From a phage, in the sequence record OZ336096.1: a stretch of DNA of 64,000 bases. The stretch is one strand, 5' to 3'. This document shows positions 6,341 through 60,862 of this stretch, piece after piece. The notes under the pieces were generated by a model. It was not told where the DNA came from, ran no database searches, and saw only the letters and a list, made by a program, of their open reading frames with translations. Made by a program: the position numbers and the translations under genes. Each line of letters opens with the position of its first letter. The first letter of the stretch is position 1.

Positions 6341-6895
6341 TCAATGTACCTCATACCAGCTCTTACCAACCTTTGCTGTACCAGTTACAAGTGTTTCTTT
6401 CCTCAAACCTAAGTTTTTTGAAGCTTGTCCATACATCCAGTCAGCAATTGCTTTCATATCCTGTGTCATACCCTCTGGACATTCCCAACTATTTTCATCG
6501 TGATATGCCAGAAGTAACCTTGCTCCGATAGCTGGTTTTCGAGCATTCAGTTTTGTCAGGCCATCTTCACAGGCTTTTCTTGCTGCTAGGTTGATGGCCT
6601 CATTCTGAATCTGTGCTTCCGAACTCATCAGGAGGTAGTTCAGTAGTTTATGTGGAGATTTGCACCATATCCATGCTCCAGCGACCCTGATATAACCACC
6701 TTTAGCAATTGAAGAATTCTTCCCAAAAACCTCTTCCAGAGCCTTTTTAGACGCCTTAAAATCGGCTTCTAAGCTATCAAGTAACTTCTTAATCTTTGGC
6801 AGACGCATATAGTAAGTTTGTTTAGTCAATGCACCTTCTTCCGTAGATGATGCTTTGATAGTTTTTGCAAACTTCTCGTCACCTGCACCGAACAA
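6341..6895 (-). CDS. DNA polymerase (family A), C-terminal exon/fragment
   Basis: Frame opens after a TGA as ..PDVLFGAGDEKFAKTIK (second half of motif B) and contains LLLAYHDENSWECPEG (motif C HDE). Confidence 0.7.
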   Translation of the reverse strand: MFGAGDEKFAKTIKASSTEEGALTKQTYYMRLPKIKKLLDSLEADFKASKKALEEVFGKNSSIAKGGYIRVAGAWIWCKSPHKLLNYLLMSSEAQIQNEAINLAARKACEDGLTKLNARKPAIGARLLLAYHDENSWECPEGMTQDMKAIADWMYGQASKNLGLRKETLVTGTAKVGKSWYEVH

Positions 6896-7160
6896 TACAT
6901 CTGGTCAATACACTCGCAAGGTGTACCAGTTCTCTTATGAACTTCTCCGCATTTCTACGGAGTGTCGGACTATATCACGTAGTAGTAATACTACCGTTGC
7001 ACTTGGGAATGGTCATTAGCTTACCACCCTACTCTACTCAGTTCATACATTAAGTATGCTTTTCGATAGTCTCTGAACGTTCCTCTTAAGAGGCTTCGCT
7101 GCTGATTACCATATCTTTTAAGACTTAGGCTTCCAGCAATTCACAACGTTTTACATGCGC
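6896..7160 (-). other. intervening sequence in DNA polymerase gene, putative small ORF-less group I intron (boundaries approximate)
   Basis: Upstream ORF stops at 7125 just after ..RKKSKNGIYAS (start of motif B); motif resumes at ~6898; RNA-sense sequence has GATATAGTCCGACACTCCGTAGAAATGCGGAG resembling the P9 region of the nrdD intron. Confidence 0.5.
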
Positions 7161-9308
7161 CACTGACGCATAGATGCCATTTTTGCTCTTCTTACGACCT
7201 TTTGTAATCTCGTGAAGAAGTTCCTCATCCTGTGTCTCCCTACAACGAACAATATCTTCTTCCTTGTTCAGACCAAAGTAAATACTGTTCAGTGTATGCG
7301 CATCAGTCCCTGTGTAGACTTCATAGAGGTCGTTCTCAGCATCATAACGAAGATACTTGTCAGTTTCTGGATTAAGATACTTATCGAGATGCTTGCAATA
7401 GTATCTTCCATCCTCTTGCTTAGTGAACTCTACTGACTCTTTACCCTCAGTTACTGCTTTAGTGAAGTCTTCATCACCCATAAAGTTACAAAGAAGAACT
7501 AGCTGGGCTGAGTTCTGGTCAACGGAAACGATGTTAGTCCCCTCCTCACAAATCCACACCTCCCTCATAGGTGCTCCATAGACAGCAGCACCAGACGGTA
7601 CGTTTACAATACCATATTGCGTCATACGTCCAGTTGAAGTACCAAACACCATTGCACCAGCACTAAGGCGACCATCTGGACGAATCTGGTTCAACCAACC
7701 TTTTTCATCATCCTTTGAGTTCTCAATAGTCCTGCGTCGGTGCATCAAAGTATAGTACTTAGCAATCTTCTGTCCAAGCTCACCTTCAATCGTATCATAA
7801 GATGATTCAGTAAGTTTTGGTGAAGTACGGATTAAGCAAGGCTCAAGCAAATCTGTGTACTTCTTCACAGACCAGTTATGTTCAATGTACTGGACACCTT
7901 CATGTTCAACATAACTCAAGCCGCACCGTTCAACCATCTCCTGCCACTTAGGATGCTTTGTAATCATCTTTTTGTTGTCTTTGAAACGACAAACTTTGAC
8001 AGGGCGACCATCTGAATCTTTCTTGTAGTTCCAGTCATCTGGAATCCAGCCAACTGATTTCAAGTAGTCTTTAACAACTGCTACTTGAGTCATACGAGAA
8101 ACTTCAAACTCAATTGGTGTATATGGTGCATCAATCAATCCTGTGTAGCGACTTGACTCCAGTCCAAAGTGGTTAACAACATGACTGTTATAGTACTTCA
8201 CAGTTTTAACTGTTTTTACTGGCTTCCAGTCTTTGCATTTCTTACCAATCTTTGCGTTCAACTCATTGCAAATTGCACGAGCATCCTTCATTGCTACAAA
8301 ACCCTCCTTGTACTCTTCACCAGTTACAGAGTTGGTTGGCGTATAGCAATTTCTCTTTTCAATGTTAAAAATCTTTGTAGTTGGCTTACCAAATGGTTTG
8401 ATTTCGTATGTCTGCATCTCACCGTTACGTACCTGCTGACGATACTTTGTCTTAGGGTACTTGGTAATCCTCTTCAGTCCATCTGCATGACCAAATGTTT
8501 CAACATACTCATTCCAAGCTTTTGCAAACTCTTCTCCAGTGACTTTACCTTTGGTCTTAATAGTTGGAGGAAGATGTGGTTCAACCTCTGAAGCAAGCTC
8601 ATTAGTCAACTTGTCAAGTTCCTTTACATGGAACTCCATAAGTTCTTTATCAGCTTTCCAACCATTGATAGCTTGTTGACTCATCCAGAAAGATGTTTCT
8701 TTAGCTCGCATGTAGGTTTCATAAGTGTCTATGCCACACTTCTTAAGCTTGAGATACTCATTATCAAGTGCCCGTTTAGTTTTGGCGTTAATACGGATAT
8801 CTTCTACAACACGAGTGAAGATTTCTGCATTCCACACACCCCAATGTTCAATCTCTGGTTTACGAACACCAACACGAGCACCCCATGCAGCCAAACCATG
8901 AGCACCTTTATAACCCTTTGGAGTTGGTCTATCCATCCACTGAACACGAGACTGGATAAGAGAATCCTGAAAGAAGTTACTCCACGGTTTACACTTTGGA
9001 TTATCAAAGTTCCATAAATCAGGTGCAATGTGGTTGAAAACCCACCAGTCATAACCGAGACCATTATGGATGCAAAGACGTTTTGCCTTTAACGCAAACT
9101 CAACACCTTCACGCAAACCACCCTTAATGTACTTGGTATACTTGTGACCGAGGATAGGCTCGTCTGTAAAGACCCATACAGGTGGCTCTTCATCGTCAGA
9201 TTTATAGTCTGCAAAGGCCATTACGTGAACTTTAGTGAACTCAAGGAGTAAACCATCAGTTTCTGTATCACCAACCAAATGTAAGTTTTTAAAATCTACG
9301 TTTTCCAT
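7125..9308 (-). CDS. DNA polymerase (family A) with 3'-5' exonuclease, N-terminal exon/fragment
   Basis: Exo I motif LVGDTETDGLL; motif A VSVDQNSAQLVLL; GTDAHTLNSIYFG; start chosen at MENVDF (9308) with GAGGGA RBS; ORF track gives 7125-9338. Confidence 0.8.
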   Translation of the reverse strand: MENVDFKNLHLVGDTETDGLLLEFTKVHVMAFADYKSDDEEPPVWVFTDEPILGHKYTKYIKGGLREGVEFALKAKRLCIHNGLGYDWWVFNHIAPDLWNFDNPKCKPWSNFFQDSLIQSRVQWMDRPTPKGYKGAHGLAAWGARVGVRKPEIEHWGVWNAEIFTRVVEDIRINAKTKRALDNEYLKLKKCGIDTYETYMRAKETSFWMSQQAINGWKADKELMEFHVKELDKLTNELASEVEPHLPPTIKTKGKVTGEEFAKAWNEYVETFGHADGLKRITKYPKTKYRQQVRNGEMQTYEIKPFGKPTTKIFNIEKRNCYTPTNSVTGEEYKEGFVAMKDARAICNELNAKIGKKCKDWKPVKTVKTVKYYNSHVVNHFGLESSRYTGLIDAPYTPIEFEVSRMTQVAVVKDYLKSVGWIPDDWNYKKDSDGRPVKVCRFKDNKKMITKHPKWQEMVERCGLSYVEHEGVQYIEHNWSVKKYTDLLEPCLIRTSPKLTESSYDTIEGELGQKIAKYYTLMHRRRTIENSKDDEKGWLNQIRPDGRLSAGAMVFGTSTGRMTQYGIVNVPSGAAVYGAPMREVWICEEGTNIVSVDQNSAQLVLLCNFMGDEDFTKAVTEGKESVEFTKQEDGRYYCKHLDKYLNPETDKYLRYDAENDLYEVYTGTDAHTLNSIYFGLNKEEDIVRCRETQDEELLHEITKGRKKSKNGIYASVAHVKRCELLEA

Positions 9309-9565
9309 TTTTACTCCCTCTAAAATCATTAACCACATACATTACTGCAAAAAATTATAAAAAGCAAGTTGACAATACACTTGACAAGGTGTTAATCTTT
9401 GCGAAGTGGGTTTTTACTTAAAAGGTTACTTAACAGTTTAACTATACAGATACTTTAAAACTCTTAAAAGATTATTTAATAGCTTTTAAAAAGCTTTAAA
9501 GTATAACGTATAGAATACGTTAAGATAAAAGATTAAAACTTAATAGTTACTTAAAAGAGGCTTAC

Positions 9566-22490: not shown

Positions 22491-23687
22491 ATGAACAAAG
22501 TACAAATTATTAAAAAGAATGGCTCACTTGAAGAACCGGATATCAAAAAAGTTTTAGTAGCAGTCACAAAGTCAGCTAACAGGGTTGGTTATAAAGAGCT
22601 TCCACCAGATGTTACTCAAGCCCTTGAGTCAGCATTTATGAGGATTCTGGTAAAATCTACTAAGCAGAATAATTTACTCGTTTCAGTAAATGATATTCAC
22701 AGTATTGTTGAAGGTGCTTTGGCAGAGGTCAATCACGAGATTTATGAGTCTTACTCAACATACAGAAATTACCGTAAAGAGGTTGCTCAAAATTGGGACG
22801 AACTCTACCAGAAGACTAAAGATACACTCTTCTTAGGTGACCGTGAAAATGCTAACTTTGACAGCAGTTTAATTTCTACGAAAGGTTCAATTATCCGTGG
22901 TTACCTGACTAAAGAAATCTTTAAACAGTATCATCTAACACCAGAGGAACTTGAAGCCATTGAGAAAGGCTTTATCTATATCCACGATTTGAGAGACCTG
23001 ATTTTTGGTGGTATTAACTGTTGCCTGTTTGACATTGGTAAAGTACTAAAAGGTGGCTTTGAAATGTCCGGCATTGAGTACTGTGAACCTAAATCTGTAC
23101 TGTCAGCGTTGCAGGTTATCGGTGACGTAGTACTTTCAGCAACTGCACAGCAATTTGGTGGATTTACTTTAGCAGAGATTGATAAGGTACTTGTACCGTA
23201 TGCTAAGAAGTCTCTACGCTATCATGCTGAGAAAGCAGCATCTTACGGTATTCCTAAAGAACATTACCATAATTATGTCATGGAGCAGCTACAGATTGAA
23301 TTAACTCAAGGTTTCCAGTCACTAGAGATGAAGCTAAATACTGTACCTTGTAGCCGTGGTGATTTCGCATTCACAACTTTAACATTTGGTTTACTTGACT
23401 CAGACATGTCTAATGAAGACAACCGACTACAATACATGATTGCAAACACCATTCTTGATGTTCGCATGAATGGACAAGGTAAGAGCAAGAAGCCTGTTGT
23501 ATTCCCTAAACTGGTTTATATTCATGACCAGAAGAGACACGATGAGAATATCTGTCAAGGTCAACTGTACAGTAAAGCTATTGAGTGTTGCTCTAAAGCT
23601 ATGTATCCAGATTTCTTAAGTGTATCTGGTCATGGTGCTGTAGCAGAGGCTTTTGAGCGTTCTGGCAAGGTAATTTCACCGATGGGT
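22491..23687 (+). CDS. nrdD: anaerobic ribonucleoside-triphosphate reductase, exon 1
   Basis: N-terminal ATP-cone; ORF ends ..VISPMG followed by in-frame TAA that I interpret as the first codon of the intron. Confidence 0.8.
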
Positions 23688-24003
23688 TAACAGGCTCTAT
23701 AGCTCATCTAAAACGTGCCTAAACAGGGAAACTCTACAGATGTAGACAATCCTGTGCTAAATGATGTACGATGTAAGAAACTATACAACATAGGAGTCTT
23801 ACATGCCAAATAACTTCGAATATGAGTTTGAATACATCTAAATGCCGAACGACTAACCGTGATGAATGTAGCGGTGTAGGGTCAAGCGACTCGAAATGGT
23901 ACGCTACTTAGAAATAAGTAGAAGATATAGTCTGGACTTACTGGCGACAGTAAGCAGCTTGAATAAAGCGGGGTAAGCTTAGCGAACTTACCTGAACAAC
24001 AAG
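23688..24003 (+). other. group I intron (ORF-less) interrupting nrdD
   Basis: 316 nt between exons; exon 1 ends in T, intron ends in G; contains GACAATCCTGTGCTAAAT, GGGTCAAGCGACTCGAAATGG, AGATATAGTCTGG, GGGGTAAG..CCTGAACAACAAG, which closely resemble core elements of the T4 td/nrdD introns as I remember them. Confidence 0.75.
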
Positions 24004-24951
24004 TGTAGAGCGTTTTTATCACCATACCATAACGAATATGGTGAAGAGTTTTATGTAGGTCGTGCTAATATTGGTGCTGTATCTTTGAACTTACCAATGA
24101 TTTACCAGTATTCTAAAGAGAATGGTTTAGATTTCTGGAAAGAGCTTGATAAGTACCTAGAGATGATTCGCAGCTTCCACAAGAAACGCTACGAAATGAT
24201 TGCTAATATGCCAGCAAGTTCTAACCCTCTTGCATTTACACAAGGTGGTCTGTACAAAGGGACTAAGAAACCTACTGATAAGGTTGGCTGGGATATTGTG
24301 AAGTCCTTCACAGCTTCTTTTGGGGTTACTGCACTAGACGAGCTATCTGTTCTTGCTGAAGGTAAGCGACTTCATGAAGTTGGAAGCTGTAGTTTTGCAT
24401 ATGATGTTCTGGAATATATCAACATAAAGACTGAAGAGTTTAAAAATGAAGATGGTTTCTTATATGCAGTCTATGGCACTCCAGCAGAATCACTTTGTGG
24501 AACTCAGCTAAAACAGTTCAGAGATATGTTTGGCGTTATCAAAGGTGTTTCTGATAAAGAATACTTTACAAATAGTTTCCATATGAATGTTGCAGCAGAC
24601 ATTACACCATTTGAGAAGCAGGACTTAGAAGAACCTTTCTTCCATATCTGTAGAGGTGGCAGAATCCAGTATGTAAGGGTAGCTAACCCAGAAAACTTAC
24701 CAGCACTTAAAAGTTGTATTACAAGAGGGATGTTGAAAGGTTTCTATCAGGGACTTAACTTTGACTTAGCAATCTGTGAACATTGTGGTAACAGACCAAA
24801 GGCTGATGTTGAAGAATGTGAGGTTTGCCATTCACACGATATCTCTGTGATTAACAGGGTGTGTGGGTACTTGTCATTCACAAAAATTAAAGGTCAGTCT
24901 CGAATGAATGACGCTAAGATGGCAGAAATTAAGGATAGGGTTTCTATGTAA
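24004..24951 (+). CDS. nrdD: anaerobic ribonucleoside-triphosphate reductase, exon 2
   Basis: Frame open from 23998; CRAFLSPY..FYVGRANIGAVSLNLP; C-terminal Zn site CEHCGN..CEVCHSHD and glycyl-radical motif RVCGYL. Confidence 0.8.
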   Translation, partial: CRAFLSPYHNEYGEEFYVGRANIGAVSLNLPMIYQYSKENGLDFWKELDKYLEMIRSFHKKRYEMIANMPASSNPLAFTQGGLYKGTKKPTDKVGWDIVKSFTASFGVTALDELSVLAEGKRLHEVGSCSFAYDVLEYINIKTEEFKNEDGFLYAVYGTPAESLCGTQLKQFRDMFGVIKGVSDKEYFTNSFHMNVAADITPFEKQDLEEPFFHICRGGRIQYVRVANPENLPALKSCITRGMLKGFYQGLNFDLAICEHCGNRPKADVEECEVCHSHDISVINRVCGYLSFTKIKGQSRMNDAKMAEIKDRVSM

Positions 24952-28469: not shown

Positions 28470-28925
28470 ATGATTTTTTGCAGCTTCCAAAAAAGAATTA
28501 TTGAGATTCTATACAATAAGTTTGGGACAGATAACACATTTGACTCAAATGAAGCTATTGAAGCCCTACAAGAAGGAAGTGATTACATCAAAAAACAGCC
28601 AATAGCAAACATCAGGTACTACTTGACTCAGATGAGAAAGTGGGGTGTGCTCATCGTGGTAGGACAGATTAAGCAACAAGGGAGGATGCTCATCAACCAA
28701 TTAAATAGAGGTTTTATTGAGAAGCACATTCAGCTAGACTATTTACTTAAAGAGCCACGAAACCAACGTGAAGAGCAGCAAAAAGACTTAAGTGGTGGTG
28801 TAGGTGTGTCTCCAGACATAAAATTCTTTATTGGTGAGTTGATGTTTGATACACTCCAAGATGCTGTTGAACACTGCAAAAAGTATGTTATCAAAGTAAA
28901 ACGTGCAAAAATTATTTGGGAGTAA
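28470..28925 (+). CDS. paralog family protein, member 1 (type A)
   Basis: 151 aa; shares C-terminal motif FFIGELMF..AVEHCKKYVIKVKRAKIIWE with three downstream genes. Confidence 0.55.
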   Translation: MIFCSFQKRIIEILYNKFGTDNTFDSNEAIEALQEGSDYIKKQPIANIRYYLTQMRKWGVLIVVGQIKQQGRMLINQLNRGFIEKHIQLDYLLKEPRNQREEQQKDLSGGVGVSPDIKFFIGELMFDTLQDAVEHCKKYVIKVKRAKIIWE

Positions 28926-28929
28926 TAAC

Positions 28930-29325
28930 ATGTTTGAGCTTCTGAAGGTTCTGTATATAAATTTTGGCTATGATAAAACATTTTCTGGCTCACAACTAAC
29001 TAAGGTTTTTAATAAGTATCTACCACATGCTTCAATCAGGGATAAAGCTAATTGGTCTCACAGATTACGTAAAAGTGGGTATATTAGCGTTGTTGGAGCG
29101 ACAGGCTTTAATAATGAGTATCTTATGAGAATCAATGAAGGCAAAGCTAAAAATGTGCTTTTAAATTGTAATGACCATCAACAAAAGGATGAAGAGGTTA
29201 GTGTAGGTGAAGTAGGGTACTTTATAGGTGACATGCACTTTACCAGTATGGAGGCAGCAGTTGAGCATTGTAAGAGAACGGTTATCCAAACAAAAAGAAA
29301 GCGTATTGTTTGGGAAGAAGTTTAA
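28930..29325 (+). CDS. paralog family protein, member 2 (type B)
   Basis: Start set at ATG 28930 (MFELLKVLY); C-terminal AVEHCKRTVIQTKRKRIVWE. Confidence 0.5.
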   Translation: MFELLKVLYINFGYDKTFSGSQLTKVFNKYLPHASIRDKANWSHRLRKSGYISVVGATGFNNEYLMRINEGKAKNVLLNCNDHQQKDEEVSVGEVGYFIGDMHFTSMEAAVEHCKRTVIQTKRKRIVWEEV

Positions 29326-29346
29326 ACATTTGATTAGGAATACACT

Positions 29347-29811
29347 ATGATTTTTTGCAATTTACAGAAGCACGTAATAGAGATTTTATACAAAACCTTC
29401 GGGACAGAAAACACTTTTGACTCTAACGAAGCAATTGACGCATTAAGAGAGAATAGCCTTTTTATACGAGGCCAGTCAATCAGTAATACCCGTGGGTATC
29501 TAACAATGTTAAGACAGTCTGGTGTACTGCTGACTGTAGGGCAGGTAAAAAGCAAAGGTAGACTAAGTATTAATCAATTAAATCGAGCCTTTATGGAGAA
29601 GCACATACAACTGTCAAGGATGCTAGATAATACGCGTGAAGAGTTGGGGAGTTCACAAAAAGCAAGTTCATCTGATGTTAAAGAGGTGGATGTACAACCT
29701 GACGTAAGATACTTTATTGCTGATGTTATGTTTAAAACACTCGATGAAGCTATTGAGCACTGCAAAAAGCATCTTATTAAAGTTAAATATGCAAAAGTTA
29801 TTTGGGAGTGA
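29347..29811 (+). CDS. paralog family protein, member 3 (type A)
   Basis: 154 aa; near-collinear with member 1 (MIFCNLQKHVIEILYKTFG... vs MIFCSFQKRIIEILYNKFG...). Confidence 0.55.
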   Translation: MIFCNLQKHVIEILYKTFGTENTFDSNEAIDALRENSLFIRGQSISNTRGYLTMLRQSGVLLTVGQVKSKGRLSINQLNRAFMEKHIQLSRMLDNTREELGSSQKASSSDVKEVDVQPDVRYFIADVMFKTLDEAIEHCKKHLIKVKYAKVIWE

Positions 29812-29815
29812 TGCT

Positions 29816-30196
29816 ATGATTGAACTGTTAAAAGTCCTGTATAATGAGTTTGGTTATGATAAAACTTTTACTTGTTCACAGATACGTAGTATCCATGATA
29901 AGGAATTTCCAAATGTATCCAAGACAAACAAGTCAACTCGGTTCAATCGTCTTCGCCAGAGGGGTTACATTAAAATAGTTGGATACAAGAATAACTCTTT
30001 CGAGTATGTAATGCAGATTAACAGAGAAGTATCAAGTAAAATACTTGAAGAGCCAACAGCCGAAGAACAAAAGATACAAGACGGTGAAGTTCGCTTCTTT
30101 GTGGAGAAGGAAAGTTTTGGGTCAATAGATGAAGCTGTCGAATATTGTAAAAAGAACATTATTCAGATAAAGCGTAGAAAGGTTATTTGGGAATAA
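29816..30196 (+). CDS. paralog family protein, member 4 (type B)
   Basis: Start set at ATG 29816 (MIELLKVLY); collinear with member 2. Confidence 0.5.
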   Translation: MIELLKVLYNEFGYDKTFTCSQIRSIHDKEFPNVSKTNKSTRFNRLRQRGYIKIVGYKNNSFEYVMQINREVSSKILEEPTAEEQKIQDGEVRFFVEKESFGSIDEAVEYCKKNIIQIKRRKVIWE

Positions 30197-30211: not shown

Positions 30212-31093
30212 ATGAAAACATCTATCCGTGTTACAGTTCATTCACCGACTAAAGGGACTCACGAAGAAGAGTTTAACATTATCCAATTCCCTTCTGGTGA
30301 GATTGGTGGACACTTTTCACAAGAGCTTGTTGATTTCACTGCTTATGCAGCATCATCCATCAACAATGTGATTATGATTGTAAAGGGTTACGATAAGGAT
30401 ACCTTGTTTGCCCTAGCACTTGCTAAAGAGGTGGTGGATGACTTAGTACCTCATAAGTTTGCTATGAAGACTGTTATCTTTTACTATTTGCCAAATGCAC
30501 GTTACGACCGTCACATGTTTAAAGGTGATGCAGCAGCTTTGAAAGTGTTTGCACAACAGGTTAATGCAATGGGTTTTGATGCAGTCTGTGCAGTTGACCC
30601 TCACAGCTATGTACCAGATAACCTGTTTAACTGCTTCCAGAGTATTCCTCAAAAGGAAATTGCAGTTCACTATGCAAATGACCCTCTGATTGATTACTTA
30701 GTAGCCCCAGATGCAGGTGCTGCTAAGAAGATTGCAGAGACTGCTAAAGAGGTGGATAAACCATATATCACAATGTCTAAAGTACGCAACCTTAAGACTG
30801 GTGAAATTACTGGTATGCGAATCCTTGATGATGTTGATTTGACAGATAAAACCGTCATGATTCTGGATGATATCTGTGATGGTGGTCGAACCTTCATAGA
30901 AGCAGCGAAACATCTTCGTGAAGCAGGTGCAAAACGTGTGGAACTATATGTAACACATGGTATCTTCTCTAAAGATGTTGAAAACCTTCTTGACAACGGT
31001 ATCGACCATATTTACACTACAAACTCTTTAGGCGAAGCTAAAGACCGTGGCTTAACACATTATAGCCAAGTTACTGTAGCAAACCTTGATTGA
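30212..31093 (+). CDS. ribose-phosphate pyrophosphokinase-like protein (Prs-like; candidate ADP-ribose pyrophosphokinase)
   Basis: 293 aa; phosphoribosyltransferase-type PRPP-binding loop VMILDDICDGGRTF; Prs-like layout. Confidence 0.7.
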   Translation: MKTSIRVTVHSPTKGTHEEEFNIIQFPSGEIGGHFSQELVDFTAYAASSINNVIMIVKGYDKDTLFALALAKEVVDDLVPHKFAMKTVIFYYLPNARYDRHMFKGDAAALKVFAQQVNAMGFDAVCAVDPHSYVPDNLFNCFQSIPQKEIAVHYANDPLIDYLVAPDAGAAKKIAETAKEVDKPYITMSKVRNLKTGEITGMRILDDVDLTDKTVMILDDICDGGRTFIEAAKHLREAGAKRVELYVTHGIFSKDVENLLDNGIDHIYTTNSLGEAKDRGLTHYSQVTVANLD

Positions 31094-31099
31094 AAGTTT

Positions 31100-31125
31100 A
31101 TAGGGGCTTAAAAGCCCCATTTTGA
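31100..31125 (+). terminator. putative terminator/attenuator
   Basis: GGGGCTTAAAAGCCCC hairpin followed by ATTTT. Confidence 0.4.
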
Positions 31126-31138
31126 GAGAGATTAAAAG

Positions 31139-32419
31139 ATGACTAAATCACTTTATGCAGTACCAGCAGGTTTAAACGCAGATGCTTACAAGTCATCGCA
31201 TATATATCAGTATCCAGATGCTACACAGTATCTTATGCTGAACCTGACGCCACGTAGTGACAAATGGTTTAACAGCCCCTTAGCAATTGATGGTGTAGTA
31301 GCTTTTGGTATTCAACGTTTCGTTAAAGATTACTTGATAGACCACTGGAACGCCACTTTCTTTGAACGTGATAAAAAAGAAGCAATTGACGAAATCTTAG
31401 AAGTCATGAACGGTGTTCTGGGCAAAGATGCTATTGGTCGAGAGCATTGGGAAGCACTTCACGACTTAGGTTATCTGCCAGTCGAAGTATACGCTGTAGA
31501 AGAAGGCACAGTTGTTCCAATGCGTGTCCCAATGATTGTCTTCCAGAACACTGTTTCAGGCTTCCATTGGGTAGCAGGTTATCTGGAAGACGCTTTCTCT
31601 GCTGAGATTTGGAAGGCTTGTACCATTGCAACTATTGCATTGCACTACAAACGTATCTGTAAGAAGTGGGCTGACCTTACTTGTGACAACGACTTGCATT
31701 TACCTTATCAGTGCCATGACTTTGCTATGCGTGGTATGTCCGGCTTTACTGATGACGCATTTAACGCTGTAGGCCACTTAACCAGCTTTAAAGGAACTGA
31801 TAGCTTCCCTGCTGTATATACAGCTAAACGCATCTACGGGCAGTCTTACCCAATCTCTGATATTGGTGGTTCTGTACCAGCCACTGAACACTCTGTAATG
31901 TGTGCAAACATTGCTTGGGAAGGTGGTAATGAATTGATTGAAGAAGAAAGACGCTTCAAAGGTGAGTTGCAAACCTTCCGTCGCTTCTTAACAGAGACTT
32001 ACCCAACTGGTATTGCAAGTGTTGTTTCAGACACTTATAACTTCTGGAGAACTGTGTCAGAAATCTTACCAGCACTCCGTAAAGAGATTATGGAACGTGA
32101 TGGCAAACTGGTAATTCGTCCTGACTCTGGAGACCCTGTACATATTGTCACAGGTTATAAAGCAATCCACTTAGAGTGTGCTAAAAAGGCTTATTACGAG
32201 CACCTAAGCAAGCTAGAGGCAGGTGATACAATGCTGAGCACCGTCCTGAACATGAAGCTTGAAGATATTAACTATGTTATGGCTGGGTGGTTACGTGCAG
32301 AAGGCTATGAAATGGTGGTTGACAGAGAAGACTTTGAAGTAGCCGATACAGTGTTGCTGAAAGCTTCATGTTCAGGACGGTGCTCAGCATTGTATCACCT
32401 GTCGAAGTATACGCTGTAG
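31139..32419 (+). CDS. nicotinamide phosphoribosyltransferase-like protein, 5' part (disrupted by internal duplication)
   Basis: 426 aa ORF; NAMPT-like; terminates inside the duplication junction after ..TVLLKASCSGRCSALYHLSKYTL. Confidence 0.65.
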   Translation: MTKSLYAVPAGLNADAYKSSHIYQYPDATQYLMLNLTPRSDKWFNSPLAIDGVVAFGIQRFVKDYLIDHWNATFFERDKKEAIDEILEVMNGVLGKDAIGREHWEALHDLGYLPVEVYAVEEGTVVPMRVPMIVFQNTVSGFHWVAGYLEDAFSAEIWKACTIATIALHYKRICKKWADLTCDNDLHLPYQCHDFAMRGMSGFTDDAFNAVGHLTSFKGTDSFPAVYTAKRIYGQSYPISDIGGSVPATEHSVMCANIAWEGGNELIEEERRFKGELQTFRRFLTETYPTGIASVVSDTYNFWRTVSEILPALRKEIMERDGKLVIRPDSGDPVHIVTGYKAIHLECAKKAYYEHLSKLEAGDTMLSTVLNMKLEDINYVMAGWLRAEGYEMVVDREDFEVADTVLLKASCSGRCSALYHLSKYTL

Positions 32420-33283
32420 AAGAAGGCACAGTTGTTCCAATGCGTGTCCCAATGATTGTCTTCCAGAACACTGTTTCAGGCTTCCATTGGGTAGCAGGTT
32501 ATCTGGAAGACGCTTTCTCTGCTGAGATTTGGAAGGCTTGTACCATTGCAACTATTGCATTGCACTACAAACGTATCTGTAAGAAGTGGGCTGACCTTAC
32601 TTGTGACAACGACTTGCATTTACCTTATCAGTGCCATGACTTTGCTATGCGTGGTATGTCCGGCTTTACTGATGACGCATTTAACGCTGTAGGCCACTTA
32701 ACCAGCTTTAAAGGAACTGATAGCTTCCCTGCTGTATATACAGCTAAACGCATCTACGGGCAGTCTTACCCAATCTCTGATATTGGTGGTTCTGTACCAG
32801 CCACTGAACACTCTGTAATGTGTGCAAACATTGCTTGGGAAGGTGGTAATGAATTGATTGAAGAAGAAAGACGCTTCAAAGGTGAGTTGCAAACCTTCCG
32901 TCGCTTCTTAACAGAGACTTACCCAACTGGTATTGCAAGTGTTGTTTCAGACACTTATAACTTCTGGAGAACTGTGTCAGAAATCTTACCAGCACTCCGT
33001 AAAGAGATTATGGAACGTGATGGCAAACTGGTAATTCGTCCTGACTCTGGAGACCCTGTACATATTGTCACAGGTTATAAAGCAATCCACTTAGAGTGTG
33101 CTAAAAAGGCTTATTACGAGCACCTAAGCAAGCTAGAGGCAGGTGATACAATGCTGAGCACCGTCCTGAACATGAAGCTTGAAGATATTAACTATGTTAT
33201 GGCTGGGTGGTTACGTGCAGAAGGCTATGAAATGGTGGTTGACAGAGAAGACTTTGAAGTAGCCGATACAGTGTTGCTGAAAG
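31481..33283. repeat. perfect tandem direct duplication (2 x 883 bp) inside the NAMPT-like gene, joined by a 37 nt inverted segment
   Basis: 31481-32363 equals 32401-33283; junction 32364-32400 is the exact reverse complement of 32221-32257. Confidence 0.9.
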
Positions 33284-33840
33284 ATGCTTACATCAACGGC
33301 TCTGCAAACGTTGTAACACGTCCTGTAGCGGAGATTGATGGAGCTATCAAGACACTGTATAACATCTTTGGGGGAACTATTAACTCTAAAGGGTTTAAGG
33401 TACTGGATGAGCACATCGGCCTTATCTATGGTGACTCTATCACACTGGAACGTGCAAACGAAATCCTGAAGCGTCTGTATGAAATGGGTTTTGCAAGCTC
33501 TAACGTGGTGTTTGGTGTAGGTTCTTACACTTACCAGTACATGACTCGTGACACCTTTGCATTTGCTGTCAAAGCAACTCTTGCAAGCATTGGTGGTAAA
33601 GAGATTATGCTTGCAAAAGACCCTAAAACAGATAGTGGTGTTAAAAAATCTGCCTTTGGTGGTGTAGCACCTATGTGGGATGGTGATAAGCTGAAAGCTG
33701 TAGATGGCTATGGATTCCAGAGTTTTGCGGATGTACTTGACCACCCAGCTTGTGCTTTACGTTTAGTCTTTAGTGACTCTGAGCAGTTCGGTTACACAAC
33801 TCTTGGTGATATTCGAAATAATATTGACAAGCAGCTTTAA
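32368..33840 (+). CDS. nicotinamide phosphoribosyltransferase-like protein, 3' part
   Basis: 490 aa ORF starting in the junction; contains second repeat copy plus unique C-terminus. Confidence 0.65.
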   Translation: MFRTVLSIVSPVEVYAVEEGTVVPMRVPMIVFQNTVSGFHWVAGYLEDAFSAEIWKACTIATIALHYKRICKKWADLTCDNDLHLPYQCHDFAMRGMSGFTDDAFNAVGHLTSFKGTDSFPAVYTAKRIYGQSYPISDIGGSVPATEHSVMCANIAWEGGNELIEEERRFKGELQTFRRFLTETYPTGIASVVSDTYNFWRTVSEILPALRKEIMERDGKLVIRPDSGDPVHIVTGYKAIHLECAKKAYYEHLSKLEAGDTMLSTVLNMKLEDINYVMAGWLRAEGYEMVVDREDFEVADTVLLKDAYINGSANVVTRPVAEIDGAIKTLYNIFGGTINSKGFKVLDEHIGLIYGDSITLERANEILKRLYEMGFASSNVVFGVGSYTYQYMTRDTFAFAVKATLASIGGKEIMLAKDPKTDSGVKKSAFGGVAPMWDGDKLKAVDGYGFQSFADVLDHPACALRLVFSDSEQFGYTTLGDIRNNIDKQL

Positions 33841-33854
33841 AAGTATATGATAAG

Positions 33855-33878
33855 AGGCTCCTACGGGAGCCTTTTTAA
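33855..33878 (+). terminator. intrinsic terminator
   Basis: GGCTCCTACGGGAGCC hairpin followed by TTTTT. Confidence 0.55.
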
Positions 33879-46924: not shown

Positions 46925-47094
46925 TTGATAATGTTGTTCGAGGGGGTTTATCTAAAAGGGATTAACTTAAAAGATTCTTTATAGATAAGCTCAAAAAAAT
47001 TGCTTGCAATCCGCTATCAAAACAAGTAAATTACTAATCAACGGGAGGTAATGACCTCCCCACTAAGTAAAATCCTTAAACTAGGAGACTCAAA

Positions 47095-47625
47095 GTGAAC
47101 AAGTTCAAAGCTATCAATTACATTCGTTCAAATGCTGTAATGTCAAAGCCTGTCAAAGATACCTACGAATTTCGCTGTAATGGTGTACACTTTGCAACCA
47201 TCACCAAATCAGGAAACGGGGCTTATTACGTTCATCGTCGTAATGTCGCAACCGTTGTAGTCTCTCATTTTATGCAAGCTGTCGCAGAATTATTACCGTT
47301 ATTCTTAGAGATTTACTTAGATGAGTGTAAAAACGTTCGCAATCACGTTAAAAACCTTTTAAATAGTTATAAAATGGCTTATGAACGTTCTATTAAGTCA
47401 TTGAACAAGTTTTATAAAGCCCCTGTAAATACTGTTTCAATGGCCTATGCTGCAAATGGTGAGGTGGTGAGTCTCTTTGAAGTGGAAGAAATCAAGCTGC
47501 ATGATTTACGCACTAGCGGTTACTCTAAGACTCTCGGTGAAGGTTTAACGTTCAATATCAAGAACTTAGAAAAAACTTTAAAAGATATTGAAAAAGATAT
47601 TGACGAGACAATCAAAAATCTGTAA
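47095..47625 (+). CDS. hypothetical protein (cassette gene)
   Basis: 176 aa ORF with GTG start after conserved leader (..CTAGGAGACTCAAAGTG). Confidence 0.45.
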   Translation: MNKFKAINYIRSNAVMSKPVKDTYEFRCNGVHFATITKSGNGAYYVHRRNVATVVVSHFMQAVAELLPLFLEIYLDECKNVRNHVKNLLNSYKMAYERSIKSLNKFYKAPVNTVSMAYAANGEVVSLFEVEEIKLHDLRTSGYSKTLGEGLTFNIKNLEKTLKDIEKDIDETIKNL

Positions 47626-47705
47626 ATTGTCAATCAACGGGGAGGGAATGACCTTCCCCACTAAATAAAGTCCTTAAACTACTTCCTAAACTGGAGAATC
47701 TAAAA
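47626..47705 (+). promoter_or_regulatory. cassette unit type 2
   Basis: Copy of CTGTAAATTGTCAATCAACGGGGAGGGAATGACCTTCCCC leader. Confidence 0.55.
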
Positions 47706-47954
47706 ATGGCAACTATCCGCGCTACTGTTAACGAGTTCGGTTTTTCCTCTCTGGATGTTAAATTTGACATTGCAGGCACTGATAACGCCTTTGAAATGGT
47801 GAAAGGTCTTATCAGTCAGACCATCAAAGATTATAATCCTTCGGATGAGTTCTGGGAGGAAACAAAACAAGAAGTTCTCAAGGATGGTTATACTTATCAC
47901 TATTGGGGAGAAAAAATCGTCTCCCTGTACTACAACAAACAAGGTTATAACTAA
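47706..47954 (+). CDS. hypothetical protein (last cassette gene)
   Basis: 82 aa ORF; terminator follows. Confidence 0.5.
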   Translation: MATIRATVNEFGFSSLDVKFDIAGTDNAFEMVKGLISQTIKDYNPSDEFWEETKQEVLKDGYTYHYWGEKIVSLYYNKQGYN

Positions 47955-47988
47955 TCGACGCAGCGGGGCTAAATAGCCCCAGATACCT

Positions 47989-48015
47989 GAACAGCCCCTC
48001 ATAGGGGCTTTTTTA
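47989..48015 (+). terminator. intrinsic terminator
   Basis: AGCCCCTCATAGGGGCT hairpin followed by TTTTTT. Confidence 0.55.
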
Positions 48016-49618
48016 CGTCTATCCAATCCTTATACAATCCCTTTCCCTCACCTTTCCAGAATCTTCCCACTGATTCAATAGAATCTATCTCATACCTTAA
48101 AAAGTAATAACTCTATAGCTTACTCTATAGCCCCTTATCAAATCAACTTAAATATAAGCCCATAACCCGAAAGGGAAGGGCAACCATTTAAACGCTCTAT
48201 AAAGCCCTATAACAACCTTATCAATCTAACTTAAGGGATTGCATTAACCCACCCTTAAAAGCCCTTTATAAAGCTTTCTAGAGCCTTAAAAGAACCTTAT
48301 AAGGTTATAAGCTTTATTATCTCGTTAGCTATCTTGTGAACTACTAAAAAGGGCTTGTTAGTGTTTTAAAAGTATGTTATAGGGGCTATAAAGTTACTTC
48401 AAAGTTGCTTAAAAGGGGCTTAAAAGTTACGTAAATGCTAGCCACCTTAACATTTTCTTAACAATTTCTTAACAAACCCTACATAGTTATGCTTTTAAGG
48501 CACTTGTTAGCAACTTGTTAGCCCCTTGTTAAATCTCTGTTAAGACCATGTAAAAGCCTTGTAAGAGTCTTTGACATAGCCTTTAAAGCTCCTGCAAAGC
48601 CCTATAAAGAGCTATCCATACAATTGATGGGTAAATACTAGGGGGAGACTGAAAAGAGCCTATAAAGAGCTTTTAAGAGCTTTTAAAAGTATGTTTAAGG
48701 AATCACTAAGAAAGGAAAGGGAACGATAAGAAAGAGATAGTGACCATGTTAATAGCTTGTTAAAAAGATTAAACACTTGTTAGGAACTTGTTAATTATCT
48801 TAACAAAATAACTCTTAAAAATTAACTTGTTAGCTCTTGTTAGTCATCTGTTAAGACTCTGTAAAGACCATGTAGCAACTGTTAAGAAACTGTTAAGCCC
48901 TTGTTAGTTTTGTTAAGAATCTGTTAAGACCTCTGAAGAGATGTTAAGAGAATGTAATAGCTGTTAAGAGATTGTTAATGATATTTTAAAATTCTGCAAA
49001 GGGGATGTTACAGGGATGTTAAGGGCTACCAAGCAGATATACACCTTTTACAGATATTTTTCAGTTCCTTCAAAGACCCTAAAAAATGACTTGACAACTC
49101 TATTTTATAAAAATTTTAAAATTCTGAATAATTACCTATACAGTCTTTTAAAAATACAGGCATAAACAGGCTTATAAGATACCTTGTTAGTACCGTGTTA
49201 GACCTTGTGAGATAAGGTCTGTAAAGATATTCCTGTTAAGTTTATTAAAACAGTCTATATAGAGGCTTAGTAATACCTAGTGAACATCTATAGAGAGTCA
49301 CATAGCTGACATAGAGATTAAGAGGTGTATAGGAGCTTCTAAGAGGGTATAGAGAGATGGTTAAGGTGATTGTATAGGTTGTTAAGAAGGCTTGTTAGAA
49401 GACTAGTTAGAAGGGTTATACAGAGGGGCTATTAAGACCACTAGATAGTTACTAAGATACTATATAGTACTATATAACTATATAGAGAGTAAGATTAAGA
49501 AGGTTGTTAAGAAGGGTAGATATTTTGTTCACATATGATGGTGACCCAGAGGTTGGGACAACCAATAAAATTTTATAAAAATTAAAAAGCCCCCAATTAA
49601 GGAGGCTCTTAAGATATT
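48016..49618. repeat. 1.6 kb ORF-free region dense in short degenerate repeats (TATAAAG, [C/T]TGTTA[A/G]G, TATAGAG families)
   Basis: No ORF >= 60 aa in any frame; dozens of copies of TTGTTAG / CTGTTAAG / ATGTTAAG, TATAAAG-type motifs upstream and TATAGAG / CTATATAG motifs downstream. Confidence 0.8.
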
Positions 49619-58605: not shown

Positions 58606-58682
58606 CTCTGTTTAGCTCAGCTTGGTAGAGCGTTCCGTTTGGGGCGGTAAGGCCGGAGGTTCAAGTCCTCCAACAGAGACCA
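58606..58682 (+). tRNA. tRNA-Pro (anticodon UGG)
   Basis: 7 bp acceptor CTCTGTT/AACAGAG, D-arm TAGCTCAGCTTGGTAGAGC, T-loop GGTTCAAGTCC, CCA encoded; hand-folded. Confidence 0.6.
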
Positions 58683-58689
58683 AATTAAT

Positions 58690-58767
58690 GTTCCAGTAGA
58701 CAAAACGGTAAAGTCACCACTCTTTCAAAGTGGATATTTGAGGGTTCAAATCCCTTCTGGAACGCCA
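58690..58767 (+). tRNA. tRNA-Glu (UUC)
   Basis: Acceptor GTTCCAG/CTGGAAC, anticodon loop CTTTCAA, T-loop GGTTCAAATCC. Confidence 0.7.
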
Positions 58768-58858
58768 GTTTTGACAGAAGACCAATTGCAGCAAACTTAA
58801 TCTTATTCATCTGACACGAAATCGGACAAAGAAGAGATTTGGTCTGGTCATTAAGAAT

Positions 58859-58935
58859 TGCGGGTATAGAGAAAGGGCGTCTCACATGTCTCATTAGCAT
58901 GGTATCGGCAGGTTCGACTCCTGCACCCGCCTCCA
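58859..58935 (+). tRNA. tRNA-Met (CAU)
   Basis: Anticodon stem CATGT/GCATG, loop CTCATTA, T-loop GGTTCGACTCC; 1-72 mismatch. Confidence 0.55.
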
Positions 58936-59012
58936 ATTTTGCAGAAGACCGTATTCAGCAACAAAATACTTTTTGCGGATAAAAGAAAAAACACGGTCTG
59001 GCAATGTATTAA

Positions 59013-59089
59013 GGTTAGGAAGCACATAAGGTATGTGCGGTCGCCTGTTAAGCGAATGGCACAGGGTTCGAATCCCTGACTAACCGCCA
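59013..59089 (+). tRNA. tRNA-Asn (GUU)
   Basis: Acceptor GGTTAGG, loop CTGTTAA, T-loop GGTTCGAATCC. Confidence 0.65.
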
Positions 59090-59098
59090 AATTTAAAT

Positions 59099-59186
59099 GT
59101 GTCGTTATCCCGTAGATGGTAGCGGTGGGGACTGTAAATCCCTTGTCATTGAGACTCGGTAGGTTCGACTCCTACACGGCACACCA
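59099..59186 (+). tRNA. tRNA-Tyr (GUA), long variable arm
   Basis: Acceptor GTGTCGT/ACGGCAC, loop CTGTAAA, long variable arm, T-loop GGTTCGACTCC. Confidence 0.65.
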
Positions 59187-59192
59187 AATAAA

Positions 59193-59270
59193 GGTTATGT
59201 AGTTTAATCTGGTTAAAATACTCCCCTGTCACGGGAGATGATGAGGGTTCAAATCCCTTCGTAACCGCCA
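59193..59270 (+). tRNA. tRNA-Asp (GUC)
   Basis: Acceptor GGTTATG/CGTAACC, AC stem CTCCC/GGGAG, loop CTGTCAC. Confidence 0.7.
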
Positions 59271-59493
59271 AATTATAATAAGTATTTCAAGATGATGTTT
59301 TGAGAGGGCTATTTAGCCCCTCCCTTAAAGAGTTCTTACGAGTATTCTTTAAAGGAGCAGAAGACCAAATTCAGCAAGTACGTATGATATTTTCAAGCCA
59401 ATTTAATTTTGAAAAATTTAAAACTTGGTCTGGCTCAACAGATTTACAGAAGACCGTTTACAGCAAAACTTAAACAATCTATTTCTCCGGTAA

Positions 59494-59556
59494 AGAAAAG
59501 GCGAAGGTTCGATTCCTTCACTCGGCAGATGTCGAGTTGGTGTAATGGTAGCACTT
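59494..59556 (+). pseudogene. tRNA-like halves in permuted order (3' half then 5' half)
   Basis: GGCGAAGGTTCGATTCCTTCACTCGGCAG (T-arm + 3' acceptor) immediately followed by GTCGAGTTGGTGTAATGGTAGCAC (5' acceptor + D-arm); the two acceptor strands are complementary to each other. Confidence 0.35.
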
Positions 59557-59727
59557 AAGATGATAAACAACGGTCTGGTAATTATCTTTGTAGATAAGTT
59601 ATTAAGCTTACCTGTGAGTATGCGACCACAAAGGGTGAAAGGGTAAATTCTAGATTTAAACCCAACAAGGCACATCGCTACAGACCTTAAGCAAGTCTGG
59701 GTAGCTTATCTACAAAGATAATTTAAT

Positions 59728-59803
59728 GGAAGTGTAGCAGAATGGTGATGCGGCAGACTTTTAATCTGACAGGCGATGGGTTCGAATCCCTCCACTTCTA
59801 CCA
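59728..59803 (+). tRNA. tRNA-Lys (UUU)
   Basis: Acceptor GGAAGTG/CACTTCT, loop CTTTTAA, T-loop GGTTCGAATCC. Confidence 0.6.
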
Positions 59804-59807
59804 ATAT

Positions 59808-59884
59808 GGTTCAGTCGCAGATAAGGTAATGCAGGGGTCTCATAAGCCCTATGAATGTGGGTTCGATTCCCATCTGAACCTCCA
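59808..59884 (+). tRNA. tRNA with CAU anticodon (Met or lysidine-Ile)
   Basis: Acceptor GGTTCAG/CTGAACC, loop CTCATAA, T-loop GGTTCGATTCC. Confidence 0.6.
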
Positions 59885-59885
59885 A

Positions 59886-59961
59886 GCTGGTATAGTTAAG
59901 AAGGTTATAACACTCCCCTGATAAGGGAACATCGGTGGTTCGATTCCACCTACCAGTACCA
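59886..59961 (+). tRNA. tRNA-Ile (GAU)
   Basis: Acceptor GCTGGTA/TACCAGT, loop CTGATAA, T-loop GGTTCGATTCC. Confidence 0.65.
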
Positions 59962-60298
59962 ATTTCAATAAAGTTGTTGACATTGAGATGTGACCACTTT
60001 TTAGTAACTAAAATACTTCATAATATGTATAATTCAAACACCAATACATGAGCGTTAGACGTAACACAATGTGGGGAAATTTGTTGTACATATTCTGAAT
60101 AGTTTTCGTTGCGTAGCGTCTATTTTGCAAATTTAAAATAAATGCAAACGACAATGTTTTTCTGGCAGTAGCTTGATAGGCTAAACACCAGTGAGGTCTT
60201 CCAATCCCTCATCAAAGAATTTGGCGTACTAGCCCACGGTATGATTAATAAAGTGGGCATCTTTAAGGGCTTTCTAAGAGAGTCTTTAAAGATAATTA

Positions 60299-60380
60299 CG
60301 GGGCGTATCTCAGCTGTCTTCTAAACAGCCGTTAACCGAGTAAGTGGAGTATGCGGGTTCGAGTCCTGCCGCCTCGACCA
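60299..60380 (+). tRNA. atypical tRNA-like gene, possibly tRNA-Arg (UCU)
   Basis: Acceptor CGGGGCG/CGCCTCG + ACCA, T-loop GGTTCGAGTCC, perfect anticodon hairpin GCTGT-CTTCTAA-ACAGC, but no recognisable D-arm and a long segment after the anticodon arm. Confidence 0.35.
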
Positions 60381-60523
60381 ATTTAGTTAGCAGATTACTT
60401 AGACGACCTAAGCGGGTCTTCCTGTAGGGAGGTGGTCTGTATCTCATGTTTTCCAGAACATGTAAATAATCTGAGAAGAAGCTTGACAGTGTTGAGATAA
60501 TACGGTAAGCTTCGAATTATAGT

Positions 60524-60606
60524 ATGGGACGATGTTAAGACTCTAAGGCATGAGCAACGGCTTCCAACACCGTTTCAAAGGGGTTCAACTCCTCCGTCCC
60601 ATGCCA
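60524..60606 (+). tRNA. atypical tRNA-like gene, possibly tRNA-Trp (CCA)
   Basis: Acceptor ATGGGAC/GTCCCAT + GCCA, T-loop GGTTCAACTCC; anticodon region AACGG-CTTCCAACA-CCGTT allows a 7 nt loop (CCA) or a 9 nt loop; extra nucleotides in the D region. Confidence 0.4.
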
Positions 60607-60619
60607 AAGTCTTATTAGG

Positions 60620-60709: not shown

Positions 60710-60862
60710 TAATAAGATTTAAAGCCAAGCTTCATTCGGATGTTGCTTTGGTATCCCTCGTGTTGTCGAACACACTAATAAAGCACCTAGTAGGTGTCAC
60801 GGAGAAGAGATAATATCAAGCTCTCCAAAGGTCCTAGTCACCGGATTAAACAAGACTATGCA

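Follow-up and report, generated by a model that had tools for sequence, protein, structure and literature searches.

A predicted NARP1 operon of a Felixounavirus phage, written with a 920-bp duplication-insertion in its namat gene

NARP1 allows phages to escape a large class of defences that deplete NAD+ (SIR2-HerA, DSR1/2, type I Thoeris and SEFIR). The system was first defined by deletion of the gp79-80 operon of phage Bas63, and 859 phage genomes were found to carry it in the discovery study (bioRxiv 10.1101/2024.02.11.579819). Bas63 deleted of genes 79-80 lost its resistance to SIR2-HerA, and ADPR-PP was seen with the wild-type phage only; the Bas63 operon makes ADPR-PP in vivo only upon NAD+ cleavage by a defence system. 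The Bas63 protein failed to purify, and the enzymology of NARP1 is that of the SpβL1 homologues in vitro. The mechanism is established for the family and is applied to the present locus by orthology. Adps would use ATP to pyrophosphorylate the ADP-ribose produced by SIR2-, TIR- and SEFIR-type NAD+ cleavage, giving ADPR-PP, and Namat would then swap the pyrophosphate for nicotinamide, yielding NAD+ directly, with neither an NMN intermediate nor an adenylyltransferase.

Here we report the analysis of a 64-kb stretch of Felixounavirus (Felix O1-like) phage DNA, hereafter the window. The original prediction had placed a Prs-like gene directly upstream of a NAMPT-like gene and had called the pair NARP1. 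A megablast of the region retrieved 256 Felixounavirus-type records, in which the two genes are annotated as ribose-phosphate pyrophosphokinase and nicotinamide phosphoribosyltransferase. In the window, the coding sequences are as follows:

30212..31093, + strand: adps, predicted ADP-ribose pyrophosphokinase of the Prs family, 293 aa, intact, with Pfam domains Pribosyltran and Pribosyl_synth; phrog_619
31139..32419, + strand: namat ORF-A, 426 aa, Namat residues 1-408 followed by an 18-aa out-of-frame tail (ASCSGRCSALYHLSKYTL)
32368..33840, + strand: namat ORF-B, 490 aa, ten novel residues (MFRTVLSIVS) and a P, then Namat residues 115-593

The Prs-like gene was found as described. Its product contains VMILDDICDGGRTF and is 80% identical to Bas63 gp79 over the full length with zero gaps, both proteins having 293 aa, the N-terminal ~60 residues being divergent. 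It failed every NCBIfam Prs equivalog, with 45-107 bits against cut-offs of 296-536 (e.g. 107 vs 296), and passed only the broad subfamily model TIGR01251 (126.8 bits). These scores, together with the identity to Bas63 gp79, a clade-defining query, place the predicted protein in the phage Adps clade rather than among ordinary PRPP synthetases, the placement being made by identity and profile thresholds. In Adps, K190 (SKVR) is matched by the EKER lysine in the alignment to the Sulfolobus Prs 4twb and may correspond to the catalytic lysine, K162 in SpβL1 and K197 in B. subtilis Prs. Neither the exact Adps protein nor the exact ORF-A has a record among 153 billion gene positions.

The NAMPT-family coding sequence begins 45 nt past adps, on the same strand, and stops at 33840, so that Namat lies well within the ten genes from Adps used to define NARP1. 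That this region is of the NAMPT family was confirmed, but it could not be kept as the single gene originally described: it is made of two ORFs, and the two-gene span is 3629 bp here versus 2709 bp in 211 related phage records. Once 920 bp are removed, namat is exactly the 1782-bp ORF of its relatives, and the reconstructed Namat is 96% identical to Bas63 gp80, with 593 aa each. The SCH selectivity clamp that is specific to Namat, GSXΦXΦXΦTRD (aromatic X), reads GSYTYQYMTRD here, at residues 488-498. Among PDB entries, the best matches were the SpβL1 Namat structures 9w5w/9w5x (E 4e-128), in which the catalytic R306/D308 line up with R327/D329 of the present protein. Residues 343-426 (~85 aa) are unaligned to the ~490-aa SpβL1 protein.

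The classical NAD+ salvage route was also considered, in which an ordinary PRPP synthetase and an NMN-forming NadV/Nampt would feed the host NMN adenylyltransferase (NadD/NadR) and boost salvage. This reading fits the generic names given by TIGR01251, by NF006629 (470 bits for the NAMPT-like protein) and by PHROG and GenBank annotation, and SpβL1 Namat does make NMN from PRPP in vitro without ADPR-PP. However, the orthologous Bas63 operon yields ADPR-PP in vivo only under a NAD+-cleaving defence, in its authors' assay SpβL1 Adps formed no product from the Prs-type substrate, the aromatic clamp motif that separates Namat from Nampt is present, and the Prs-like protein falls below all Prs equivalog thresholds. 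In addition, no match to PF01467 (CTP_transf_like) or PF00293 (NUDIX) at E<=0.001 was found among the matches listed for 102 other window ORFs of at least 60 aa, in agreement with the earlier claim that the window holds no NMN adenylyltransferase; these ORFs were chosen across the window, 25 of the 27 families were listed in batch 1, and ~22 kb of the phage genome lie outside the window. The annotation of the complete Bas63 genome lists neither an Nmnat nor a Nudix domain. We consider classical salvage highly improbable here, and the original judgement that it fits less well is upheld.

Altogether, orthology to Bas63 gp79/gp80, the SCH motif, the failure of the Prs equivalogs and the lack of an NMNAT among the other window ORFs searched support NARP1 (Adps + Namat) over the Prs/NadV/NatV route, and on this sequence evidence we assign the locus as the Felixounavirus NARP1 operon, the predicted direct orthologue of Bas63 genes 79-80. 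The original identification thus withstood the sequence tests. The high interest attached to it did not: NARP1 was first found in this very genus and has been described from those 859 genomes, and its presence here adds nothing new.

Downstream of the operon, we noted one candidate transcription signal:

33852..33875, + strand: terminator-like hairpin, 10-bp stem and T run, starting 12 nt past the namat stop; consensus match only

This hairpin probably closes the transcription unit; terminator-like sequences are no more numerous in the region than in shuffled controls. Scanning the surroundings of the operon for sigma-70 promoters likewise gave counts not above those of shuffled sequence, and we claim no promoter.

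The locus differs from that of Bas63 in the structure of namat. The insertion of 920 bp consists of an 883-bp duplication of namat codons 115-408 and a 37-nt inverted filler:

31481..32363, + strand: first copy (copy 1) of the tandem duplication, 883 bp, with 100% identity to the second, the exact extension of the offset-920 identity
32220..32260, + strand: segment from which the inverted filler derives, within copy 1 and 100 nt before the breakpoint, ending in the palindrome AAGCTT
32361..32401, + strand: junction, a 41-nt inverted copy of 32220-32260, 100% complementary
32401..33283, + strand: tandem duplication copy 2, 883 bp, offset 920

At the junction, AAG (32361-32363) also forms the last three letters of copy 1 and G (32401) the first letter of copy 2, leaving a net filler of 37 nt (32364-32400). 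The filler includes CTTCATGTTCAGGACGGTGCTCAGCATTGTATCACCT and supplies the ORF-B start ATG at 32368; the sequence diagnostic of the junction is GCTGAAAGCTTCATGTTCAGG. Apart from the 883-bp repeat, which greatly exceeds chance expectation, the 64-kb window contains no long perfect repeat. Since 920 mod 3 is 2, the namat frame is broken, and the sequence as written encodes an intact Adps and no full-length Namat, the gene being split into ORFs of 426 and 490 aa. ORF-A contains the NAMPT_N domain, the SCL loop region, H251 and R327/D329, and is without the C-terminal 185 residues that include the SCH clamp motif. ORF-B contains H251, R327/D329 and the SCH motif, and is without the N-terminal 114 residues, that is the NAMPT_N domain and the SCL loop. 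Because of the perfect tandem duplication, the two ORFs have an identical stretch of 294 residues in common.

Could the two fragments restore activity together? If the duplication is real, ORF-A might contribute its N-terminal domain and SCL and act in trans with ORF-B, which has the barrel and SCH, the pair assembling into an active Namat-like dimer. Every Namat residue is indeed present across the two ORFs, the right breakpoint (408/409) falls within residues 343-426, which are absent from SpβL1 Namat and may be a tolerant surface insertion, and in PHROGs the N and C halves of NAMPT form separate families. But both fragments miss part of their own fold, the 294 residues present twice would interfere with productive assembly by competition, the ORF-B ATG lies inside the filler with no convincing Shine-Dalgarno, and the arrangement occurs in no other genome and hence is not a conserved design. 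We regard such complementation as extremely unlikely.

The junction itself bears on the origin of the rearrangement. Its two breakpoints are at most 41 nt apart and enclose a short templated inverted insertion, with 3-nt microhomology at the first; the microhomology at the second junction is 1 nt, which is chance level. Such a breakpoint pattern is a signature of polymerase template switching. Elsewhere, the window runs collinear to Bas63 and very few indels separate the two (e.g. 3 gap openings in 16.6 kb), which also speaks for real DNA. In the proposed course of events, a recent double template switch would lie behind the rearrangement: a nascent 3′ end ...GAAAG would have snapped back and paired, 100 nt upstream, with CTT in the palindrome AAGCTT; after 38 nt had been copied from the opposite strand, it would have primed anew 883 bp upstream. 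The phage as written would make ADPR-PP but not full-length Namat, and recombination between the identical 883-bp copies would give back exactly the wild-type namat.

Against a real duplication stands the uniqueness of the junction. When 32290-32470 was compared by megablast with 50,697 phage records, none of the 151 that matched spans the junction, and exact 30-mer scans gave 0 matches in IMG/VR and 0 in JGI metagenome contigs. The same NARP1 operon may thus belong to a phage with an intact 593-aa Namat and functional NARP1, the 920-bp insertion being an amplification or assembly artefact, for example a contig-end snap-back chimera followed by joining or rotation of the overlapping ends of a circularly permuted genome. 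Besides the unique junction, this would account for copies that are 100% identical over 883 bp and for the fact that deleting the insertion gives exactly the wild-type gene. Furthermore, the window crosses the origin of the Bas63 record (63779-64000 = Bas63 1-222), which means that the start of the source record was chosen differently and that a rotation may have taken place. Strand-displacing polymerases offer a further route, as they produce inverted chimeras at short microhomology. On the other hand, overlaps of this kind are normally collapsed or trimmed by assemblers, the overlap length is not k-mer sized, in a plain duplex fold-back read the inversion would start right at the breakpoint and not 100 nt upstream, the remaining assembly appears clean, and the junction lies mid-window, away from the sequence ends. 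We hold an artefact to be a serious possibility, though one that falls clearly short of even. The 100% identity of the copies fits a very recent event, and equally contig ends whose overlap was left untrimmed, or a chimera that arose in amplification and was fixed by an assembler.

Three specific technical origins were rejected. For HindIII ligation, suggested by a filler that begins with AAGCTT, the native left side CTGAAAGATGC has no HindIII site, which leaves one HindIII end at most. A simple nanopore or PacBio duplex fold-back does not agree with the position at which the inverted segment begins, and an indel-rich poor assembly does not agree with the few gaps in the alignment to Bas63.

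On balance, we lean slightly towards a Felixounavirus NARP1 operon whose rearrangement is present in the sequenced DNA, in a phage without full-length Namat and deficient in NARP1. More narrowly, that the duplication is a genuine and very recent template-switch mutation, real and inactivating, which gives a NARP1-null (Adps-only) allele, is a reading to which we give a little less than even weight. That it represents a selected on/off switch of the anti-defence pathway seems to us very unlikely.

If the duplication is true, the locus would be in an unstable on/off state, its NARP1-null allele being precisely revertible via recombination of the 883-bp copies. The phage would then be a natural control, predicted to build up ADPR-PP or ADPR-cP with no restoration of NAD+ on SIR2-, DSR- and Thoeris-bearing hosts. 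An annotation pipeline would report two 'nicotinamide phosphoribosyltransferase' genes at the broken namat, and a NARP1-positive prediction might be wrong here.

Among the described systems, NARP2, i.e. NadV + NatV of KVP40 (Nampt and a bifunctional Nmnat), resembles NARP1 in having a NAMPT-family enzyme and in restoring NAD+ in infection. While NARP2 starts from PRPP, follows the NMN route and requires Nmnat, the present locus has Adps instead, and no Nmnat or Nudix was found among the 102 other window ORFs.

In NARP1-AP of Vibrio phage Gary (bioRxiv 10.64898/2026.01.28.702374), the genes are ordered Adps-Adpp-Namat, Adpp being a Poa1p-like Macro-domain ADPR-1''-phosphate phosphatase, whereas here no Macro gene stands in or beside the operon. 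A Macro-domain ORF does occur ~7.5 kb, or ~13 genes, downstream:

41328-42113: Macro-domain protein ORF, aligning across the entire Gary Adpp with 27% identity, E 1e-13

Its H25 aligns with Adpp H24, the histidine mutated in the Gary study (bioRxiv 10.64898/2026.01.28.702374), and it has an additional C-terminal extension of ~100 aa. However, this Macro family is found in 2,814 phage records, including T4 Tk.4, and is widespread in phages without NARP1; the link is therefore not specific, and a dispersed NARP1-AP was rejected.

SpβL1 NARP1 (PDB 9w5w/9w5x, PMC12774641) has in common with the present Namat the NAMPT-like fold and the catalytic residues, R306/D308 there being R327/D329 here. The SCH clamp motif reads GSFTYQYNTRD in SpβL1 and GSYTYQYMTRD here, the Felixounavirus Namat is ~100 aa longer, and the SCL loop sequence is different.

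Bas63 (Escherichia phage JohannRWettstein, MZ501086; bas63_0079/0080) is, like the present phage, a Felixounavirus, and the two are closely related. Gene order, strand and the 45-nt spacer are the same in both, the SCH motif region is identical, and the operon is preceded by nrdD/nrdG and followed by rIIA/rIIB. The two differ in four paralogous small ORFs (28470-30196), which lie between the gp78 homologue and adps here and are absent in Bas63, and in the frame-breaking 920-bp duplication-insertion that namat carries in the present sequence.

The original prediction placed a Prs-like gene, with its VMILDDICDGGRTF loop, before a NAMPT-like gene. ORF and Pfam analyses bear out the pair, but not a single NAMPT-like gene, as that coding region is divided between two ORFs. 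The ORF listing, completed by a consensus match for the hairpin, gives the following arrangement:

30212-31093, forward strand, adps, the Prs-like ORF (293 aa)
31139-32419, forward strand, namat ORF-A (426 aa)
32368-33840, forward strand, namat ORF-B (490 aa)
33852-33875, forward strand, terminator-like hairpin 3′ of the namat stop codon

The loop lies within the 293-aa ORF, and a 45-nt spacer separates adps from the NAMPT-like coding sequence, which ends at 33840. Pfam domains are Pribosyltran and Pribosyl_synth in Adps, and NAMPT_N and NAPRTase in the NAMPT-like region. ORF-A and ORF-B share a long identical peptide stretch. Promoter-like matches around the operon were no more than expected by chance.

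Generic profiles have no power to separate Namat from Nampt or Adps from Prs, and NF006629 and PHROGs label the NAMPT-like protein merely as a nicotinate or nicotinamide phosphoribosyltransferase. Nonetheless, the proposed identity as NARP1, the NAD+ rebuilding pathway formed by Adps and Namat, is supported by several lines of evidence. First, NARP1 was initially found in the BASEL phage Bas63, where genes 79-80 encode it (bioRxiv 10.1101/2024.02.11.579819). Bas63 is a Felixounavirus (MZ501086); its gene 79 (882 bp), its gene 80 (1782 bp) and the spacer between them match the pair studied here in length once namat is reconstructed, and gap-free alignments show 234/293 identical residues (80%) for Adps against gp79 and 571/593 (96%) for reconstructed Namat against gp80. 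Second, the Namat-specific clamp-helix motif GSXΦXΦXΦTRD, whose aromatic X residues stack on the adenine of the intermediate ADPR-PP (2026 structural paper, PMC12774641), is present as GSYTYQYMTRD at residues 488-498 of reconstructed Namat; it is the same in Bas63 and reads GSFTYQYNTRD in SpβL1 Namat. Third, the top PDB matches of the NAMPT-like protein are 9w5w/9w5x (chains of ~490 aa, E 4e-128), far ahead of the remaining Nampt-annotated chains (E 1e-41 to 1e-51), and this comparison aligns R327/D329 with catalytic R306/D308. Finally, Adps passes only the broad subfamily model TIGR01251 (126.8 bits, cut-off 113) and stays far below the cut-off of every Prs equivalog model, the nearest solved Prs structure reaching E 3e-18 at best; the profile and structure comparison proposed at the outset thus sets it apart from ordinary PRPP synthetases. 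On sequence grounds, the predicted assignment of the operon to NARP1 is correct.

The claim that the window holds no NatV-type gene is also supported. Of 105 selected non-overlapping ORFs of at least 60 aa, the 102 that do not belong to the Adps/Namat locus went through a Pfam scan in three batches, and neither CTP_transf_like nor NUDIX was among the matches listed for them, which comprised all but two weak families of the first batch (64-kb window, with ~22 kb of genome beyond). As the complete Bas63 annotation also contains no adenylyltransferase, a NARP2 (NadV/NatV-type) reading, which needs an NMN adenylyltransferase, is not supported.

The split of namat stems from a perfect tandem duplication of 883 bp at an offset of 920, defined by repeat analysis and exact extension, which is the sole long perfect repeat of the 64-kb window:

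31481-32363, forward strand, duplication copy 1
32401-33283, forward strand, duplication copy 2
32361-32401, between the copies, 41-nt exact inverted copy of 32220-32260, part of which forms the filler

The source segment, with a terminal palindrome AAGCTT, is contained in copy 1 at a distance of 100 nt upstream from the breakpoint. As the inverted piece overlaps the end of copy 1 by AAG and the start of copy 2 by a single G, the net insertion is 883 + 37 = 920 bp, and because 920 mod 3 = 2 the frame is broken. ORF-A encodes Namat residues 1-408 and an 18-aa tail; ORF-B encodes 10 novel residues and a Pro, then residues 115-593. In silico removal of the 920 bp restores a 1782-bp ORF of 593 aa.

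By megablast, 256 phage records match 30212-33840, mostly at 90-95% identity, from phages of Escherichia, Salmonella, Shigella and Citrobacter and from the genus Felixounavirus. The adps and namat span is 2709 bp (3629 minus 920) in all matching relatives. In phage heid, annotation places the pair between nrdD/nrdG and rIIA/rIIB. The closest deposited phage is ~93% identical over 25 kb and none is identical; exact-sequence look-up returned no record for the Adps and ORF-A proteins. The junction is spanned by 0/151 matching phage records and has no match in IMG/VR or JGI metagenome contigs.

This uniqueness among the collections searched, together with the perfect identity of the copies, the chance-level microhomology at the second junction and a record origin that differs from that of Bas63 (which leaves room for joining or rotation of contig ends), makes it quite conceivable that the insertion is an artefact. 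However, two breakpoints at most 41 nt apart, a short templated inverted insertion and 3-nt microhomology look more like polymerase snap-back or template switching than assembler behaviour, which favours a real molecule, as does the near absence of indels against Bas63 in the remaining window. On balance, we lean towards a real duplication.

ORF-A retains NAMPT_N, the region of the selectivity-clamp loop (SCL), H251 and R327/D329, but is missing the last 185 residues and with them the clamp helix (SCH); ORF-B retains H251, R327/D329 and SCH and lacks the N-terminal 114 residues. In SpβL1 Namat, anti-defence activity was shown to depend on the catalytic core and on each of the two clamp elements (PMC12774641). 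No convincing ribosome-binding site precedes the start ATG of ORF-B, which sits in the filler. As written, the sequence would code for no functional Namat, and recombination between the copies would exactly regenerate the wild-type gene. PHROGs holds separate families for the halves of phage NAMPT/Namat, N-terminal phrog_16547 (315 positions) and C-terminal phrog_15800 (322 positions), both among the matches of 31139-32419 and 32368-33840, a hint that annotations of other phage genomes also include namat genes that are split or have a broken frame.

Elsewhere, Rfam identified two group I introns (RF00028) and a tRNA cluster:

6945-7177, reverse strand, group I intron (64.5 bits)
23604-23954, forward strand, second group I intron (52.7 bits)
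58606-63553, forward strand, 22 tRNA genes in one cluster, corresponding to the Bas63 tRNA region

The first intron divides the DNA polymerase gene into ORFs of 737 aa (7125-9338) and 184 aa (6341-6895), and the Bas63 gene lacks a ~270-bp segment of this region. The second lies between the halves of nrdD (anaerobic ribonucleotide reductase; 22491-23690 and 24085-24951), also annotated in Bas63 as two joined pieces with a homing endonuclease within. Repeat analysis of 42820-48430 revealed intergenic cassettes of ~35-96 nt in 5-7 copies ahead of consecutive small ORFs. Every cassette has a GC-rich hairpin (GGGGCTTAA...TTAAGCCCC) and, after it, a ribosome-binding site and ATG. A second family, with TTGACA...TAAATTAC, has 3 copies. 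These repeats have the look of terminator/promoter modules reiterated in an early-gene region. Relative to Bas63 the source record is permuted, as positions 63779-64000 match Bas63 1-222.

Two further features were also seen:

28470-30196, forward strand, four tandem paralogous small ORFs (151, 140, 154 and 159 aa) between the gp78 homologue and adps
41328-42113, forward strand, Macro-domain protein of 261 aa (Pfam Macro, E 1.2e-7; phrog_335 "phosphatase"; bas63_0095 orthologue)

The four-ORF stretch, of which two scanned ORFs match phrog_29478 (function unknown), is absent from Bas63 and heid; as it is covered in only 11/219 matching Felixounavirus records, it is a variable accessory cassette directly upstream of NARP1. 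The Macro protein covers the whole of Adpp, the NARP1-associated ADPR-1″-phosphate phosphatase of Vibrio phage Gary (27% identity, E 1e-13), with H25 corresponding to Gary H24, and differs by a C-terminal extension of ~100 aa. It might widen NARP1 against aRES defence, or behave like DarG. Since 2,814 phage records, among them T4 (Tk.4), contain a member of its family, the tie to NARP1 is not specific.

In Bas63, loss of genes 79-80 confers sensitivity to SIR2-HerA, and ADPR-PP is seen only when the wild-type phage infects defence-carrying cells; as the Bas63 protein failed to purify, SpβL1 homologues were used for the enzymology (bioRxiv 10.1101/2024.02.11.579819). The sole new element here is the broken namat, which is a minor allele of natural origin that has lost its function, or else an assembly error. 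NARP1 itself is not novel: it is the already-known system, in the very genus of its discovery.
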